Assembly (NCBI GenBank): GCA_964466455.1
Contig: CAYXNL010000002.1
Coordinates: 9,964-73,963 of the forward strand
Reading direction: 5' to 3'
Source: an uncultured Thiotrichaceae bacterium
GTDB lineage: Bacteria; Pseudomonadota; Gammaproteobacteria; SZUA-229
Length of the DNA stretch: 64,000 nucleotides
Each line of letters starts with the position of its first letter. The stretch's first letter is position 1. Below, in pieces: positions 16 through 39,686 of the stretch. The notes beneath the pieces were generated by a model, which did not search any database, was not told the DNA's origin, and worked only from the letters and a program-made list of their open reading frames with translations. The position numbers were made by a program, and so were the translations under genes.

Positions 16-1371
16 TTATAGCAGAAACAGGGTTGCCAGGCCTAGAAAAACGAACAAACCGACATTGTCAGTAATGGTGGTTAATACCACACCCCCGGCA
101 ATGGCCGGGTCAATATTCAGTTTTTGCATAACTATTGGAATTAAAACACCCGAAAAAGCGGCTACACATAGGTTAATAATAATAGCTGCCGCAATAACAA
201 TACCAATATGAACATTATGGAACCAGAATATGGTAATAGCAGCAATCACTATCGCCCAGCCGATACCGTTTAGCAGGCCGACGATAATTTCCTTGCCGAT
301 TAACCAGTTGCGATTACTTTTGCTTATCTGATCCAGCGCCAGACCACGAATAACCAGAGTGAGAGTCTGGGTGCCTGCTATGCCTCCCATGCTGGCAACG
401 ACATTCATTAAAACAGCGACTGTAACAACTTTTTGCAGGGTGTGTTCGAAATTGGACACTACCCATGATGCCATGAAGGCGGTGAGTAAATTAATACCCA
501 GCCAGATAGCGCGGCGTTTGCTACTGGGAATAATGGGTGCAAATAAATCCTCTTCCTCGGTTAAACCTGCCATACCCAGAACAGAGTGATCGGCTTCATC
601 ACGGATAACATCGACAACATCGTCAATGGTAATACGCCCCAGTAGTCTGATTTTTTCATCAACTACCGGTGCTGAAATCAGGTCATGGGTCTCGAAAGTT
701 TTGGCAACTTCATTGCTGGGTGTGCTGGCTTTGATGACCTCAGTATCACGGTTCATAACTTCAGCAACGGTCATTTCCAGATCGTGAGTGAGGATAGTGG
801 ACAATGGCAGGGTGCCGACAAAAAGATTATTGCGTGTGGTTACAAACAGGCTATCGGTGTTGTCCGGTATTTCACCAAGCAGACGCAGGTAGCGCAATAC
901 AACATCAAGTGTTACCTCGGTACGTACCGTAATAGTGTCGGTATTCATCATACCGCCAGCACAGTCTTCCGGATAGGAAAGCACCGCTTCCAGACGTTCG
1001 CGGTGTTGCGTATCAAGTGAAGTGATTACCTGTGTGGTAACACGATCGGGTAATGACTGAATAAAATCGGCCAGGTCATCGACATCCATGCCCTCAGTTG
1101 CACTCACCAGGTCATTTAAGGACATACCGTTAATCAGGGTAGAGCGGATTTCTTCCCCCAGTTGAATCAGTACTTCACCTTCTTTTTCGGGGTTGACCAG
1201 TTCCCAGATAATATTGCGTTCATTGTGTGGCAGGGATTCAAGCAAGTGGGCAATTTCAGCCGGATGTAACTCATTGAGCATGCCGCGCGCATGCTGCATG
1301 GTACCGCTATCGAGTGCCTGGGTTAGCACCTGAAGTTGTATTTCGGTTTTTTGTGAGCGATCGGGTTTCAT
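16..1371 (-). CDS. mgtE: Magnesium transporter MgtE
   Basis: 451-aa ORF. The N-terminal soluble region resembles MgtE-N/CBS and the C-terminal domain is hydrophobic with about 5 TM segments and a MgtE-like ending (GGxV...TDxxGF). Confidence 0.8.
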   Translation of the reverse strand: MKPDRSQKTEIQLQVLTQALDSGTMQHARGMLNELHPAEIAHLLESLPHNERNIIWELVNPEKEGEVLIQLGEEIRSTLINGMSLNDLVSATEGMDVDDLADFIQSLPDRVTTQVITSLDTQHRERLEAVLSYPEDCAGGMMNTDTITVRTEVTLDVVLRYLRLLGEIPDNTDSLFVTTRNNLFVGTLPLSTILTHDLEMTVAEVMNRDTEVIKASTPSNEVAKTFETHDLISAPVVDEKIRLLGRITIDDVVDVIRDEADHSVLGMAGLTEEEDLFAPIIPSSKRRAIWLGINLLTAFMASWVVSNFEHTLQKVVTVAVLMNVVASMGGIAGTQTLTLVIRGLALDQISKSNRNWLIGKEIIVGLLNGIGWAIVIAAITIFWFHNVHIGIVIAAAIIINLCVAAFSGVLIPIVMQKLNIDPAIAGGVVLTTITDNVGLFVFLGLATLFLL

Positions 1372-1437
1372 GACGGCGCTGAATCAGTTTATTTTATTTT
1401 TGCGGAGTCTATCATGTCATTATCCGCATGTTGTGAC

Positions 1438-1578
1438 TTATTACTGAAACGGATAAAAAGATGCTTATTGTTCAAAACACGCGGTGAATACCTCCATGTA
1501 AGTTCGATACCCGCATCCCTGCGGCTGACGGTCTTGAACAATAAGTATCCTTTTCATCCATCCTGTTAGTAATTATGG
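1438..1578 (+). repeat. ~140-bp imperfect palindromic intergenic repeat (MITE/ERIC/Correia-like), copy 1, more degenerate
   Basis: About 85-90% identical to 27771-27910 by eye. Shares the core cccgcatccctgcggctgacggtcttgaacaataagtatcctttt, and its arms (gataaaaagatgcttattgttca / tgaacaataagtatcctttt) form a long stem. It lies between the ptsI stop and the mgtE start. Confidence 0.7.
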
Positions 1579-1596: not shown

Positions 1597-3372
1597 TCAG
1601 TGGCTGATATTTAATTGACTGTTAAACTTCTCAATTTCTGTATCTTCATACAAGGTTAGAATAGTGCTGGTTTTCTGTTTTAATGTCTTTACATTACTTT
1701 GTAGAATAATGTTTTTTATTTCCAGCAGGGAATTTGCCTGTACACTGAAGTATTTCAGTCCCATACCCAGAAGCAGTCGTGTATATTGGGTGTCACTGGC
1801 CATTTCACCGCACATGGAAACAGGAATATTTGCTTTGTCACCTGCCTGAATGACTAGTTGAATAAGCTTTAGAACCGCTGGATTTAATGGGTTATAAAGA
1901 TAATTAACTTCCTCATCAATGCGGTCGATTGCTAATGTGTACTGGATTAGATCGTTAGTACCAATGGAGAGAAAATCCATATGTCTGGCAAAGGCATCAA
2001 TAGACAGGGCGGCAGCGGGTACTTCTATCATTGCACCGATGGGCATATTTTTATCAAAAGCCTGTTTGCGTTGTTTGAGGATGGTTTTTGCTTCATCAAT
2101 CAGGTTCAGTGTCTGATGGATTTCTTCAACATTGGTTAACATAGGAATCATCAGTCGCACCGGGCCCAGTGCCGAAACGCGCAATATAGCCAGTATCTGT
2201 GGTAAAAAGGCCTGTGGTTCTTTCAGACAGCGACGGATGGCACGCAGACCCATGGCCGGGTTGTGTGCCATAGGACCCTGATTAATGGTGTCCTGAATTT
2301 CCTTGTCAGCACCTAAATCCATGGTGCGAATAGTAATCGGTTTCCCTTTCAGTGCGGTAACCGCGCGCCTGTAGGTTTTAAAATGGGTGTTTTCATCAGG
2401 CCATGTATTGAGTTCAATAAACAGCATTTCTGTACGGTAAAGTCCGACCCCGGTATCATCATATTTTTTAATGATCTTAATATCACTCGGTCGGTCGATA
2501 TTTCCATGCAGGGTAACATTAACTTTATCCAGTGTTGTTGCTGGCTTGCCAGCCAGGTTATTGAGCAGTTTACGCTGTGTAAGTTGATTGCGGCGCAGGC
2601 GCTTATAGTGTTTAAGTGATGCCTCATCAGGGGTGTTGATTACCACACCTTTGGAGCCATCCATGATGATTTCTTCATCCTGATGAATTAATTGCCGGGC
2701 GTGGTGCAGGCCAACGATTGCGGGGATCCCCAGGTTCCTTGCCAGAATAGCAGTGTGGGACAGGGGACCACCATATTCAGTAATAAACCCGGCAATCCGC
2801 TGATGCTGAAACATAATGGTATCAGCCGGTGTCAGGTCGTCAGCAACGATAATCTTACCTTTTAGTTCGTCTGTTTTATGCGGTTGGCTAATATTGTAGT
2901 CATTTTCAACCAGGCACTTCTGAATGCGGTTAACAACATGCAGAACATCATCCTTACGAGTTTTTAGATAAGGGTCTTCCATCTCATCGAAGACCTGTAT
3001 CAGGCGTTCGGACTGTAGATGTAAGGCCCATTCAGCATTGCATGAGTTTTGCCTGATATTGGCAATGGTTCCTTCGTTGAAGGCCGGATCTTCCAGCATC
3101 AGCAGGTGGGTATCGATGAAGACAACAATATCTTCCGGTGTATTACTGGATATCTGTTTTTTGATAGCATGTAGTTGCCGACTGGCATTGGTCAATGCTT
3201 TTTTAAAGCGGGCTATTTCGGCATTAATCTGTGACTTGTCGAGTGTTTTTTGTGTGACATTAATCTGTTCGCGCGCAATGATATAGGCACGCCCGGTGGT
3301 TATGCCTTTTGAAACACCTAATCCGCTTATATATATACTCAAATGAATACTCTTTAACCTGAATTTTAGCAA
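1597..3372 (-). CDS. ptsI: Phosphoenolpyruvate-protein phosphotransferase (PTS enzyme I, no GAF domain)
   Basis: 591 aa. N-terminal phosphohistidine region (GLHARPA-like ...GGxxSHTAIxAR), PEP-utilizing TIM-barrel C-terminus (IGTNDLxQYTLAxDR, CGEMA). It sits immediately downstream of an HPr gene. Confidence 0.8.
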   Translation of the reverse strand: MLKFRLKSIHLSIYISGLGVSKGITTGRAYIIAREQINVTQKTLDKSQINAEIARFKKALTNASRQLHAIKKQISSNTPEDIVVFIDTHLLMLEDPAFNEGTIANIRQNSCNAEWALHLQSERLIQVFDEMEDPYLKTRKDDVLHVVNRIQKCLVENDYNISQPHKTDELKGKIIVADDLTPADTIMFQHQRIAGFITEYGGPLSHTAILARNLGIPAIVGLHHARQLIHQDEEIIMDGSKGVVINTPDEASLKHYKRLRRNQLTQRKLLNNLAGKPATTLDKVNVTLHGNIDRPSDIKIIKKYDDTGVGLYRTEMLFIELNTWPDENTHFKTYRRAVTALKGKPITIRTMDLGADKEIQDTINQGPMAHNPAMGLRAIRRCLKEPQAFLPQILAILRVSALGPVRLMIPMLTNVEEIHQTLNLIDEAKTILKQRKQAFDKNMPIGAMIEVPAAALSIDAFARHMDFLSIGTNDLIQYTLAIDRIDEEVNYLYNPLNPAVLKLIQLVIQAGDKANIPVSMCGEMASDTQYTRLLLGMGLKYFSVQANSLLEIKNIILQSNVKTLKQKTSTILTLYEDTEIEKFNSQLNISH

Positions 3373-6993: not shown

Positions 6994-8490
6994 CTAGGAA
7001 AGCCGTTTACGTTCATTTGAAGGCGGTATCATCATAGATTCTCTGTATTTTGCCACAGTCCGGCGGGCGATATTAATACCTTCCTTGACCAAAAAAGATG
7101 AAATTTTATTATCACTCATCGGTTTTTTAGGGTTTTCACTTTCAATTAGTTTTTTTACCATAGAGCGTATGGCAGTGGCGGAGCATTCCCCGCCATCGGC
7201 TGTGCTGACATGGCTGGAAAAGAAAAATTTAAATTCATAAATACCATTGGGCGTGTGCATATATTTGTTTGTGGTAACACGTGAAATGGTCGATTCGTGC
7301 ATTTCCAGCTCTTCGGCGATGTCGCGTAACACCATGGGTTTCATGCCTTCATCGCCATATTCAAGAAACAGTCGTTGACGTTTGACAATCGCTTCGCCAA
7401 CTCGTTGCAGTGTATCGCTACGACTTTGCAGGCTTTTCAGGAACCAGCGGGCTTCCTGCAGGCTGTTGCGTAAATAGACGGTGTCCTGTCCACGACCGGC
7501 ATTTTTTAGATGACCTTCGTATAGCTGGTTGATTTTTAACTTTGGGGCCGCTTCCGGATTAAGGCTAACGCGCCAGTTCCCATTAATCTTATGGACAAAT
7601 ATATCGGGAATAACATACTGTGCTTTGCTGCTGGAAATACTGGCACCTGGTTTTGGGTTTAGCGTTTGAATAAAGGTAACTAGCTGTTGTAGCTGATTTT
7701 CATCACAGTGTATTTTTTTTTGCAGGCGGGCATAATCGTGGCTGCCAAGTAAATCCAGATGATGGCTGATAATGGTTTGTGCGTCATCCAGCCCTTCGGT
7801 TTTTTCATCGAATTGCTCAATTTGTAATAACAGACATTCACGTAAATTACGGGCAGCAATACCAATGGGATCAAAATGTTGAATACGGTGTAATACCGCT
7901 TCTACTTCGTCTTCTTCAATATCCAGTTCGTCAATTAGGCTCTGATGGATATCTTCAACCGATTCAGTAAGATAACCATCATCATTGATCGCATCAATGA
8001 TAGCAATAGCGATCACCATGTCGGTATCACTGACCTGTGAGTTCTGCAACTGCCAGAGCAGGTGTTCATACAGGGTGTTCCCCTCAATGCTCTGGTTTTC
8101 AAGAAAATCGTTGCTATTACCATCAGTTGCGTTATTTGATGATGGGGTGGCTGTGGAGATATCGTAGGTGTCTTCCCAGTTAGCATCTACCGTCAGGTCT
8201 TCCGGTAATGACTGATTATTTTCCATATCAAGGTGTGGGTCATCCGTCTGGGTTGACGCATCATCCATACTATCACTACCGCTTTTGTCTGCATTGGTAT
8301 TATCAAGCCTGTCTTCAACACTGTTCTGGTACAGCTCTTCATCCTGCTCCAGCATTGGGTTTTCTTCCAGTGCCTGCTGGATTTCGGCCTGTAATTCAAT
8401 GGTTGATAGTTGTAACAGACGAATTGCCTGTTGCAACTGTGGTGTCATGGTAAGGCTCTGACTAAGTTTTATCTGAAGTGATGGCTTCAT
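6994..8490 (-). CDS. rpoN: RNA polymerase sigma-54 factor
   Basis: 498 aa. Gln-rich N-terminus, acidic region, and a C-terminal RpoN box (ARRTVAKYRE) with an HTH. Confidence 0.9.
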   Translation of the reverse strand: MKPSLQIKLSQSLTMTPQLQQAIRLLQLSTIELQAEIQQALEENPMLEQDEELYQNSVEDRLDNTNADKSGSDSMDDASTQTDDPHLDMENNQSLPEDLTVDANWEDTYDISTATPSSNNATDGNSNDFLENQSIEGNTLYEHLLWQLQNSQVSDTDMVIAIAIIDAINDDGYLTESVEDIHQSLIDELDIEEDEVEAVLHRIQHFDPIGIAARNLRECLLLQIEQFDEKTEGLDDAQTIISHHLDLLGSHDYARLQKKIHCDENQLQQLVTFIQTLNPKPGASISSSKAQYVIPDIFVHKINGNWRVSLNPEAAPKLKINQLYEGHLKNAGRGQDTVYLRNSLQEARWFLKSLQSRSDTLQRVGEAIVKRQRLFLEYGDEGMKPMVLRDIAEELEMHESTISRVTTNKYMHTPNGIYEFKFFFSSHVSTADGGECSATAIRSMVKKLIESENPKKPMSDNKISSFLVKEGINIARRTVAKYRESMMIPPSNERKRLS

Positions 8491-27770: not shown

Positions 27771-27910
27771 TTATTACTGAAACAGATAAAAAGGATACTT
27801 ATTGTTCAGGACACGCTGTTAATACATCCATGTAAACTCGACACCCGCATCCCTGCGGCTGACGGTCTTGAACAATAAGTATCCTTTTTATCTATCCTGT
27901 TAGTATGTGG
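27771..27910 (+). repeat. ~140-bp imperfect palindromic intergenic repeat (MITE/ERIC/Correia-like), copy 2, best preserved
   Basis: Arms gataaaaaggatacttattgttcagg and cttgaacaataagtatcctttttatc pair over about 24-25 bp. The internal mini-hairpin is CCGCAtcccTGCGG. It is A-rich before and T-rich after the stem on both strands. It lies between the yraN stop and the diaA start. Confidence 0.7.
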
Positions 27911-34151: not shown

Positions 34152-36017
34152 TTAAATATCCGCTTTCAGCGCGCGCCTGATGTGTGCAGCAAACTGTCTG
34201 GCCTTCATATAACCGACTACACGATAGTTTCTATGCTCCTTACCTTTGGTATCAAAAAACATAATGGATGGTGGTCCGATGATGCCAAAGTGTTTGTATA
34301 ACTGAACGTCCTGTTTATCGTTAGCAGTAACGTTGGCCTGTAATAAAACCACACCTCGCAGCGCGCTCTTTACGCTGGGGTTGGTAAAAGTAAACACTTC
34401 CATTTCCTTGCAGGATACACACCAGTCAGCATAAAAATCCAGCATAACCGGTTTACCGGCTGCTTTTGCCTCTGCCAGTGCAGCGTTTAAGCCTTTAATT
34501 CCTTTAATCTGTTTAAACGTTAATGCTGAGTGTTGCTGTTGTGAAGAAGATGAAGTAATCGTTTCCAGACCTTCCAGTGGCTGGAGAACGTTACGATTTC
34601 CACCCGCCAGACCAAGCAGAATAATAATGCCGTAGATCAGAAATACGATCCCAAAACCTTTCCATAACCTTTTCCAGCCATTGCTGCCGCTGGGTAAACT
34701 GTCTATTGCGCCCATATAAATGGCAGAGACGATAATCAGTATTGCCCATAATGACATGGTTAAAGTAACCGGTGCTACTCTTTCCAGTAACCAGATGGCG
34801 AGAGCCAGCAGAAGTACACCGAATACTGCTTTCACAGCATCCATCCATTTGCCCGCTTTGGGTAACAGTTTGCCAGCAGAAGCACCAATTAATAATAGAG
34901 GTGTACCCATCCCCATGCTTAATGCAAACAGTGCCATTCCTCCAAGCAAGGCATCACCGGTGTTGGCAATATACAGTAATGCACCAACCAGTGGAGCGGT
35001 AACACAGGGGCCGACAATCAGTGCGGACAGAAAGCCCATGATGGCGACACCAATTAACGTGCCACCATGCTGACTATTGCTTGCACTAGTTAATTTGTTT
35101 TGAATACTGGCGGGCATTTGCAGTTCGTAGAAGCCGAACATGGAAAAGGCGAGTGCGACAAAAATAGCTGAAAAGCCACTAATAATCCACGGATTCTGGA
35201 ACCATGCCTGGATGTTTTCACCTGATAGACCAACCAGGACACCAACAATAGTGTAGGTGGCGGCCATTGCCAGCACATAGACCGCAGATAGTAACAGTGC
35301 CTTGCGGGTAGAAATATCCTTCCCCTGACCAACAATAATGCCTGATAGAATCGGGATCATTGGAAATACGCAGGGAGTAAAAGCAAGTAGCAGGCCGGCA
35401 CCAAAAAATATCAGCAGGGTTAATAGAGTATTGCCATTTTTCAATGTGTCAGCAATTTTATCCTGCGCCGAAAGGGGTGCCGTACTAGCGCTTGACTGGG
35501 CAGGGGTGGATGTGGCTGATTGTGCGGCAGCAGCAGTGGATATCGGGGAGAGCTTTATTTTAAATGTACGTATTTGTGGCGGGTAGCAAATTCCGGATAT
35601 TTCAGAGCAGCCCTGATAACGAACCTTGAAACTGACTTCTTTGCCCGCATTACCTGTATAGTGGTAGGGTAATGTGGCGGTGGCAAAATGGTGGTAGACG
35701 TGCAGGGTTTTATTAAACACGGGGTCTGCTTTCGGTTCCCCTTTGGGCATGATCAGTGGCTGGGTTTGTACCGATGAATCATCTATGGTGATCTTCATTT
35801 GGTCACGATACAGGTAGTGGCCTTTGGCAATCACCCATTTGGCGGTAAATTGTCCAGGTTTGGGTTGTATAGTTAGCTGGAAAGCCTGATCGGGATCCAG
35901 AATCTTATCCTGCCCGCTGAGTCCATCAAGAAGATTTAAGTTGTTGCCTGCGAAAAGTGGCAGGCTCACGCTGAGCAATAACAGTGTGGAAAATAAGCGG
36001 GATAAAAAATTATTCAT
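34152..36017 (-). CDS. dsbD: Thiol:disulfide interchange protein DsbD
   Basis: 621 aa: signal peptide, N-terminal Ig-like domain, central multi-TM domain with a Cys pair, and a C-terminal thioredoxin domain (WCVSC). Confidence 0.85.
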   Translation of the reverse strand: MNNFLSRLFSTLLLLSVSLPLFAGNNLNLLDGLSGQDKILDPDQAFQLTIQPKPGQFTAKWVIAKGHYLYRDQMKITIDDSSVQTQPLIMPKGEPKADPVFNKTLHVYHHFATATLPYHYTGNAGKEVSFKVRYQGCSEISGICYPPQIRTFKIKLSPISTAAAAQSATSTPAQSSASTAPLSAQDKIADTLKNGNTLLTLLIFFGAGLLLAFTPCVFPMIPILSGIIVGQGKDISTRKALLLSAVYVLAMAATYTIVGVLVGLSGENIQAWFQNPWIISGFSAIFVALAFSMFGFYELQMPASIQNKLTSASNSQHGGTLIGVAIMGFLSALIVGPCVTAPLVGALLYIANTGDALLGGMALFALSMGMGTPLLLIGASAGKLLPKAGKWMDAVKAVFGVLLLALAIWLLERVAPVTLTMSLWAILIIVSAIYMGAIDSLPSGSNGWKRLWKGFGIVFLIYGIIILLGLAGGNRNVLQPLEGLETITSSSSQQQHSALTFKQIKGIKGLNAALAEAKAAGKPVMLDFYADWCVSCKEMEVFTFTNPSVKSALRGVVLLQANVTANDKQDVQLYKHFGIIGPPSIMFFDTKGKEHRNYRVVGYMKARQFAAHIRRALKADI

Positions 36018-39306: not shown

Positions 39307-39686
39307 GGAGCTGGCCAGGCAATCGCGCCTGTTAGTTGTACCGGTTTATCCGGTATCAATGATGCAGGGGAGGAAAGTCCGGGCTCCGCAGGACAGAGTG
39401 CCAGGTAACGCCTGGGAGGTGAAAACCTACGGAAAGTGCCGCAGAAAATATACCGCCTGCTGTCTCATCGTAAATGGCAGGTAAGGGTGAAATGGTGTGG
39501 TAAGAGCGCACCGCGCCATTGGCAACAATGGTGGCAGGGTAAACCCCACTCGGAGCAAGACCAAATAGGGGAACATAATGCGTGGTCCGCGCTGTTCCCG
39601 GGTAGGTTGCTTGAGGTGCATGGTGACATGTTATCCAGATGAATGATTGCCCTGGACAGAACCCGGCTTATCGGCCAGCTCCTTCT
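39307..39686 (+). ncRNA. rnpB: RNase P RNA, bacterial type A
   Basis: Near-identical universal blocks to E. coli M1 RNA: GGAGGAAAGTCCGGGCTCC, CAGGGTGCCAGGTAACGCCTGGG-like, GGTAAGGGTGAAA, GTAAGAGCGCACC, CGGAGCAAGaCCAAATAGGGG, GAACCCGGCTTATCGG. P1 pairs 5' GGAGCTGGCC with 3' GGCCAGCTCC. The spurious ORF 39436..39642 lies inside it. Confidence 0.85.

Follow-up and report, generated by a model that had tools for sequence, protein, structure and literature searches.

The locus upstream of mgtE in the 64,000-nucleotide stretch of DNA from an uncultured Thiotrichaceae bacterium that was analyzed here (the window) raises the question of whether the structured, palindromic repeat lying between a ptsI-like gene and mgtE serves as an Mg2+-responsive leader or is a mobile element that settled there. 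We consider it very probable that this repeat, copy A of two in the window, is a non-autonomous, non-coding repeat of the MITE (miniature inverted-repeat transposable element) type, which inserted at TA in the ptsI-mgtE spacer with duplication of its target and whose family, which occurs among certain uncultured Thiotrichaceae, is one branch of a much wider superfamily that includes the Yersinia repeat YPAL/RU-2 (Ysr224 in Rfam). This superfamily is defined by the apex of its long hairpin and not by its ends, and its arms keep their complementarity rather than their sequence. The TA-duplicating branch is a new variety of an already known repeat type. For mgtE the outcome is deflationary: what looks like a structured leader is a mobile repeat, and there is no Mg2+ riboswitch, nor was one displaced. 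It is the conserved, covarying apex, more than mgtE, that makes the locus interesting.

Copy A is a 129-bp imperfect palindrome at positions 1441 to 1569, with the plus strand taken as the one that carries CNTCCNTG loops, and comparison with empty sites sets its limits at the left TA (1439 to 1440) and the right TA (1570 to 1571) of the duplicated target. A preliminary description of the locus had given the span as 1438 to 1578, which contains the element and the TA on both sides and runs 7 nt too far at the right end; it had correctly placed the element between the co-directional minus-strand genes ptsI and mgtE, 67 bp from the latter, and had rightly seen in it the sole large structured element of the ptsI-mgtE leader. 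The left arm, with its TTACTGAAAC end and a sequence common to the family (1441 to 1476, plus strand), pairs with the right arm and its CCTGTTAG end (1531 to 1569, plus strand). Copy B (27774 to 27903, plus strand, 130 bp) lies between a yraN-like and a diaA/gmhA-like gene, has TA at 27772 to 27773 and at 27904 to 27905, and is 88 to 90% identical to copy A with one internal indel. The two are thus copies of the same repeat, as had been proposed, and copy A is indeed the more degenerate, if only modestly so, since 29 of the 40 aligned columns of its arms are paired compared with 31 of 40 in copy B. The minus-strand RNA of copy A is predicted to fold at -49.6 kcal/mol (z -5.5) and that of copy B at -59.5 kcal/mol (z -8.7), and none of 200 shuffled sequences was as stable in either case.

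A scan with the arm pattern over one genome per species found the repeat in a single species, the uncultured Thiotrichaceae metagenome-assembled genome (MAG) CAYTUK01, to which the window organism is related but from which it is distinct (MgtE identity, 89%). Eight 8-kb loci of this MAG contribute 16 or more copies or fragments, which fall into two arm subfamilies, and the window and these loci together hold 18 copies or fragments in 128 kb, so that the repeat is not a chance match. Family members occur in the window, in CAYTUK01, and on VAOW, VAOX, and VAOZ contigs, and the exact window locus is also present in two metagenome assemblies. The hallmark of the family is a pair of arms, TTACTGAAAC...GGATACTTATTGTTCAAGAC and a complement ending in CCTGTTAG, around the core, and the end sequences include TTACTGAAAC and CTAACAGG. 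Copy A has this arrangement, scores 127.9 bits against the family hidden Markov model, and is 88 to 91% identical to the other copies. Every copy is intergenic, between neighbors that may be co-directional, convergent, or divergent. A BLAST search of the element against plasmids and Escherichia coli genomes gave no match. Being small, non-coding, and multi-copy, with terminal inverted repeats and a target-site duplication, copy A has these traits in common with a classical MITE.

Several rearranged forms occur in the same material. Of the 34 complete family copies, 8 have a core that is turned round with respect to their two unlike arm ends, and recombination between inverted arms would yield such flip and flop forms. 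Both forms stand on one contig in L042 (100 to 175 and 687 to 761) and in L122 (416 to 488 and 8867 to 8939), and flip/flop forms were further seen in L048, L060, L064, L080, L107, and L128. Two copies of different arm subfamilies lie in tandem between divergent genes in L010 (1965 to 2100 and 2165 to 2298, 65 bp apart), and internally deleted remnants in L071 (10666 to 10713) and L010 (7361 to 7404) consist of the outer arm ends with their TA flanks, joined without a core.

Because the target-site duplication is invisible from the flanks alone and evident only through empty sites, the clearest view of the insertions came from close relatives without them. For copy B, the yraN-diaA spacer measures 177 bp in the window, 45 bp in L137 and L138, and 49 bp in L139, relatives whose DiaA proteins are 97%, 95%, and 85% identical, respectively; all three sites are clean empty sites, and with 27774 to 27905 removed, the window aligns without gaps to the 97% and 95% relatives. 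Copy A is present in L016, whose MgtE is 97% identical, and absent from L017, a 96% relative, and from L014, which belongs to the 89% species. The window without 1441 to 1571 aligns to the unoccupied L017 site (..GCAATTAAAGTAC..), with ..AATTAA.. as the target, apart from a nearby 26-nt indel. Both insertions are at TA, with TA thereafter on each side of the element, and of 31 family copies, 23 are bordered by TA on the left as well as on the right, compared with a background TA frequency of 6.7%.

Two features of the empty ptsI-mgtE spacers were noted on their own account. The 26-nt stretch GACATCATGCCGACAGGATCCTGGTG of L017 (about 2893 to 2918, corresponding to about 1575 of the window, between the ptsI stop codon and the insertion site) is missing from the window, bears no relation to the element, and stands only a few bases away from the TA target; we considered L017 as a site holding a remnant of the element and rejected this, as the shared heptamer ACAGGAT is at chance level and the L017 site is empty, its 26-nt indel being separate. 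The spacer of L014 holds another hairpin, AAGCCAGGG...CCCTGGCTT (about 2840 to 2890), which is unrelated to the repeat and has no T-run after it.

The comparison also bears on age and rate of change. The suggestion in the preliminary description that copy A is the older insertion holds, since the genome that shares copy A (L016) is unoccupied at the copy B locus (L137). Of the 136 positions of the element, 128 (94%) are the same in the window and in L016; for ptsI, with 240 four-fold sites, the figure is 84.6% (binomial p 0.0006). The leader adjoining copy A is 83% identical. One of the differences is a compensated double change in the arms. Such slow change suggests that the hairpin is under constraint, or that it has undergone hairpin-templated repair or conversion.

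The link to a wider group of repeats comes from the center of the element. Its only Rfam match is to RF02770, Ysr224, for which copy A scores 17.0 bits where the gathering score is 70, and this match recurs in the same register in four other copies at 20.7 to 23 bits, which is below the threshold for Ysr224 sensu stricto. Reverse-complemented, the Ysr224 consensus gives the 168-bp repeat RU-2/YPAL of Yersinia (PMC2759123, Table 1b), and the center of our family consensus aligns with the YPAL center over 53 nt at about 75% identity with a score of 49, where 1,000 shuffles reached at most 28. A metagenome scan for the shared core with the pattern CATCCATGTANNCTCGAN{5,8}CATCC found it on at least 118 contigs. 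The conserved module among the matches listed reads GAC-ACGCYGTRAATA-CATCCATGTA-RGCTCGA-S-[stem]-CATCCMTG-[stem']-S-ACGGTC, and it is flanked by long arms that are complementary inside each element and unrelated between families, with dozens of arm sequences ranging from AT-rich to more than 70% G+C.

Over about 70 to 80 nt, this apex forms a three-way junction of the arm stem and two small hairpins with CNTCCNTG loops; its parts are the arm stem, a 3-bp helix P2, hairpin 1 (TACA-TCCA-TGTA), the linker GCTCGA, and hairpin 2, which has a free stem and a CATCCMTG loop. In copy A, hairpin 1 (1489 to 1500, plus strand) reads TACCTCCATGTA, where the family consensus is TACATCCATGTA and the minus strand gives UACAUGGAGGUA, and hairpin 2 (1511 to 1524, plus strand) is CCGCA-TCCC-TGCGG, with CCGCAGGGAUGCGG on the minus strand, GGGA in the loop, and a place in the minimum free energy fold. 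Among 91 distinct sequences, 87.6% of the cells of the apex structure pair, compared with 66% in shuffles and 30 to 39% in slid controls, and 573 cells show double changes, compared with 178 in shuffles. The covariation is mostly in the arm helix and in hairpin 2, whose stem covaries freely across families, with some in the short helix P2; hairpin 1 is invariant in this set because the search pattern fixed it.

A covariance model, R1, was built from these 91 sequences, which comprise environmental copies and both window copies and no Yersinia sequence, and it gave 165 matches in 0.87 Mb of loci. It matches the apex and innermost arm pairs of copy A (1467 to 1548, plus strand) at 75.9 bits (E 2.7e-19) and copy B at 89.5 bits, scores that are partly so by construction, since both copies are among the training sequences. 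An independent test is provided by YPAL in a Yersinia pseudotuberculosis record, which R1 matches at 68.1 bits (E 8e-19). We found no description of the core outside Yersinia and Erwinia in the literature searched. A BLAST search with YPAL returned only unannotated copies in Yersinia and a few enterobacterial plasmids; such YPAL-like copies, for example that at 34719 to 34882 of NZ_CP058751.1, which is 75% identical to the Yersinia YPAL, lie on conjugative plasmids of E. coli, Klebsiella, and Citrobacter from wastewater, and beyond those plasmids YPAL is nearly absent from 5,426 E. coli genomes. YPAL, as Ysr224, thus appears to be one branch of a widespread palindromic class, and a model of the core would stop the annotation of its members as species-specific small RNAs or their confusion with gene-specific leaders. 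A coding reading of the core, for which an open frame noted in RU-2 (PMC2759123) might speak, was rejected, since the hairpin-2 stem changes by compensatory pairs and not by codon logic.

Variants of the apex were observed in some superfamily members. Inserts of 40 to 60 nt in the hairpin-2 loop or beside the core, which carry extra small hairpins with TCC loops (GGA when read on the complementary strand; GGCAATTGCTCCTGCATTGCC and GCCCATCCATGGGC are examples), are present in L035 (271 to 400), L041 (8293 to 8372), L118 (935 to 1067), L125 (3957 to 4035), L021 (about 2650 to 2761), and L061 (about 790 to 928). The hairpin-1 variant TACGTCC(C/A)TGTA, with a G-T wobble on the CATCC strand that becomes an A-C mismatch on the opposite one, is found in six or more families, at L117 (2870 to 2943), L036 (5356 to 5429), L078 (7284 to 7356), L073 (1699 to 1767), L051 (5498 to 5565), L025 (183 to 244), L046 (6157 to 6227), and L126 (251 to 311); its mirror was seen once.

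How the Thiotrichaceae repeat relates to its nearest known counterparts can be read from these features together with the properties of YPAL, which we took from reviews. Like YPAL/RU-2, it is a multi-copy, intergenic, imperfect palindrome of about 130 to 170 bp that forms a long hairpin, and the two share the core. They differ in their arms, which are unrelated in sequence, and in their hosts, here Thiotrichaceae and not Enterobacterales. They also differ in their ends, as YPAL is reported to lack TA termini and to have duplications of 3 to 26 bp at or near dyad symmetries (PMC2229807), whereas here we see TA ends with a 2-bp duplication and flanks that are not enriched in hairpins, the target rule of YPAL, but fold in the same way as controls. 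With ERIC/IRU, Correia/NEMIS, and RUP elements it shares small size, non-coding sequence, inverted-repeat arms, insertion at TA with duplication, and an intergenic position in either orientation, those elements being co-transcribed as stable RNA hairpins (PMC2229807, Table 1). It has no sequence similarity to them (no match in Rfam or BLAST), and while ERIC, Correia, and RUP elements conserve their ends or the whole element, here the apex is common to families with unrelated arms.

In its surroundings, the most economical reading is that copy A is a passive passenger of the ptsI-mgtE spacer. The ptsI-like gene for a phosphoenolpyruvate-protein phosphotransferase (1597 to 3372, minus strand), with rapZ, EIIA(Man), and HPr genes upstream of it, is the upstream neighbor of mgtE (16 to 1371, minus strand; 451 amino acids with MgtE_N, CBS, and MgtE domains), and the element follows the ptsI stop codon after 25 nt and precedes the mgtE ATG by 67 nt. 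Read-through from ptsI, if there is any, would produce an RNA hairpin of about -50 kcal/mol that might affect processing or stability at the ptsI 3' end. Effects of such hairpins on RNA processing and stability have been reported for YPAL and ERIC (PMC2229807), and for Correia elements as well. The gene mgtE itself would keep its own proximal control region, the 67 nt at 1372 to 1438 (minus strand), which is conserved with and without the element (83% identity to L016 and 87% to L017); at four-fold sites, identity is about 85% to L016 and 75 to 76% to L017, so that the proximal region of L017 lies above that level. This region holds a candidate sigma-70 site downstream of the element, ATGACA-18-TAAAAT (1420 to 1391, minus strand; 10 of 12 hexamer positions), which is the only such site in 1300 to 1700, a number no higher than in shuffles (mean, 1.2). 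In L017 it reads TGGACA..TAAAAT and in L016 it is degraded, which makes it weak evidence. As for the apex, it may be kept because the spread of the element itself needs it, possibly as a hairpin in single-stranded nucleic acid that is recognized in trans, which would fit with copies that stand in either orientation relative to genes.

Several observations weigh against the account of copy A as a TA-inserting MITE that leaves mgtE alone. A three-way-junction apex that is common to the families and covaries, while arms and ends vary freely, is the reverse of a classical transposase-driven MITE and its transposase-end logic, and it points either to structure-dependent movement or to a function for which the apex is selected. 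Not all superfamily members end in TA: the family of L066 and L098 ends in CCCCACGCTTC, and YPAL is without TA ends (PMC2229807). No autonomous partner and no solo ends bracketing a gene were found in the 0.87 Mb of loci, and of the 223 Pfam families in 135 flanking open reading frames (ORFs), where those seen were housekeeping only, the 25 commonest include neither a transposase nor a reverse transcriptase nor an HUH family. Finally, the promoter-like site downstream of the element is a consensus match only and is degraded in L016, and mgtE may depend on read-through across the element.

A concrete candidate for a selected function is the binding of CsrA/Rsm proteins. The apex would then be a portable double CsrA/RsmA site, with two CANGGANG hairpin loops on the ptsI/mgtE strand clamped by a protein dimer, and the copies would act as CsrA decoys or bring neighboring transcripts under Csr control; we regard this as possible but unlikely. 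RNA in the sense of ptsI and mgtE, being of the minus strand, would carry the complementary CANGGANG loops, and those of copy A, CCGCAGGGAUGCGG and UACAUGGAGGUA, fit the RsmE motif (A/U)CANGGANG(U/A) (PMC6849547) with GGA in the loop. On the GGA strand, the superfamily consensus is UACAUGGAUGUA (the UACAUGGAGGUA hairpin) and N5-CA(G/U)GGAUG-N5', and its loops fit both this motif and the consensus RUACARGGAUGU, obtained for CsrA by systematic evolution of ligands by exponential enrichment, in which ACA and GGA are invariant and GGA lies in a hairpin loop (PMC4347634). A distance of about 23 nt separates the two GGA triplets, and extra hairpins with GGA loops on the same strand occur in some families (L035, L041, L021, and L061). 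In 32 copies obtained without the search pattern, hairpin 1 varies mainly at its two N positions, which show 17 and 14 changes, with at most five at each other position. Moreover, transcripts of Ysr224/YPAL, a multi-copy family that is described as temperature-responsive and ranked with the most abundant "small RNAs" listed for bacterial genomes, have been detected in abundance in Yersinia (PMC9029176, PMC12112432). Such a site would resemble CsrB, RsmY, and RsmZ RNAs in offering, on one strand, at least two hairpins that show CANGGANG with GGA in the loop at this distance, but here the predicted sites lie inside a mobile palindrome found in both orientations relative to transcription, and no Rfam Csr/Rsm family matches.

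The orientation of the copies does not bear out the CsrA proposal. Between co-directional ORFs, the strand complementary to CATCC, that is, the GGA strand, is in the mRNA 34 times and the CATCC strand 22 times (p 0.14), downstream of genes the ratio is 62:39, and within the family it is 14 versus 9; this weak excess is not significant, and no strand rule was detected with the longest-ORF calls used, which are crude and noisy in GC-rich contigs. Stem mismatches are symmetric (44 of the G-U type versus 47 of the A-C type) and do not suggest that either RNA strand is favored by selection, the core is inverted against the arms in some copies, and the common hairpin-1 variant ACGTCC keeps its G-T pair on the opposite strand only. 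The csrA gene was not found in the window or the loci examined, which is uninformative. A literature search that paired CsrA with miniature inverted repeats turned up nothing but a paper on the Rfam database, and it did not cover CsrA in combination with YPAL or Ysr224; the motif match was itself noticed after the fact. If the proposal were true, Csr-responsive or Csr-titrating modules would have spread through intergenic regions by transposition, and the ptsI-mgtE and yraN-diaA transcripts of the window would carry one CsrA module each.

Structure-dependent movement could take a different form from the one that we favor, in that the two like apex hairpins might be single-stranded DNA sites for a trans-acting HUH-type enzyme, as in REP/RAYT and IS200/IS605 systems, with the TA flanks representing a target preference plus the end of the element and not a true duplication. 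In favor of this, one strand carries two like hairpins whose loops are fixed and whose stems are free, orientation does not depend on transcription, TTA forms the left flank of most copies and of the empty sites, and no DDE-type partner was seen. Nevertheless, this appears quite improbable to us, as both empty sites fit a plain 2-bp TA duplication and there is no bias relative to GC skew (59 versus 50), whereas IS200/IS605 and REP systems are strand biased. Among the 25 most frequent Pfam families of the 135 neighboring ORFs there is no Y1 transposase and no RAYT, and no GTAG/CGTC tag is present. The likeness to REP/BIME elements, or to REPINs with their RAYT, lies in dispersed palindromic repeats whose hairpin form matters, and REPINs have conserved arms and a variable tip, which is the reverse of what we observe.

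This leaves the question of Mg2+ with which the locus began. The preliminary description had proposed that the insertion might have rewired mgtE, and it had pointed to the Mg2+-sensing M-box (ykoK leader) as the structure to look for by an Rfam scan. No M-box (RF00380) or other Rfam family was found in the leader at gathering scores, and no riboswitch at E<=10 in 1300 to 1700, where all matches, that to Ysr224 among them, were below threshold; the same locus of L014, L016, and L017 also lacks an M-box or any other riboswitch, including L014 and L017, which are without the element. Since such a switch is missing from relatives with and without the element alike, nothing was displaced by the insertion. 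The resemblance to an M-box is thus one of position only, a structured element upstream of mgtE that could act as RNA, and the difference is that it matches no such Rfam family and is a dispersed repeat beside unrelated genes. An insertion that replaced or rewired Mg2+-responsive control, and that now serves as a functional structured leader instead of an M-box, would be in keeping with the element being the only large structure between ptsI and mgtE, with its lying in the transcribed orientation of both genes, and with copy A changing more slowly than four-fold sites. We nonetheless hold it to be very unlikely, as there is no ancestral riboswitch to replace, the same element stands beside dozens of unrelated genes in every context, and the 96% relative without the element keeps the proximal 67 nt. 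Rewired Mg2+ control of mgtE through the element is unsupported by the sequences compared, and nothing in them suggests Mg2+ sensing by the element.

That the element is instead an intrinsic terminator or attenuator between ptsI and mgtE, or an independent small-RNA gene like Ysr224, which is listed as a temperature-responsive small RNA (PMC9029176), has very little to commend it, for, although a very stable hairpin stands 25 nt past the ptsI stop codon and the family copies lie nearer to the upstream stop than to the downstream start (median core distance, 63 versus 97 nt), no U-run follows the stem on either strand, 1300 to 1700 holds no terminator-like site on either strand, no promoter-like site lies within the element, and copies are found between divergent genes too.

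A few further observations concern the setting of the two copies. GC skew is positive throughout positions 1 to 64000 of the window, with the cumulative skew rising, which makes the plus strand the probable leading strand; transcription of the rapZ-ptsI-mgtE and lpoA-yraN-diaA clusters would then run against it. Downstream of mgtE, synteny in L014 differs from that in the window lineage, and this relative has a 5S rRNA gene (99 bits; 7095 to 7210, minus strand) some 2.7 kb downstream of mgtE. In the window, the only Rfam family at its gathering score is class A RNase P RNA, at 39307 to 39686 on the plus strand with 331 bits.

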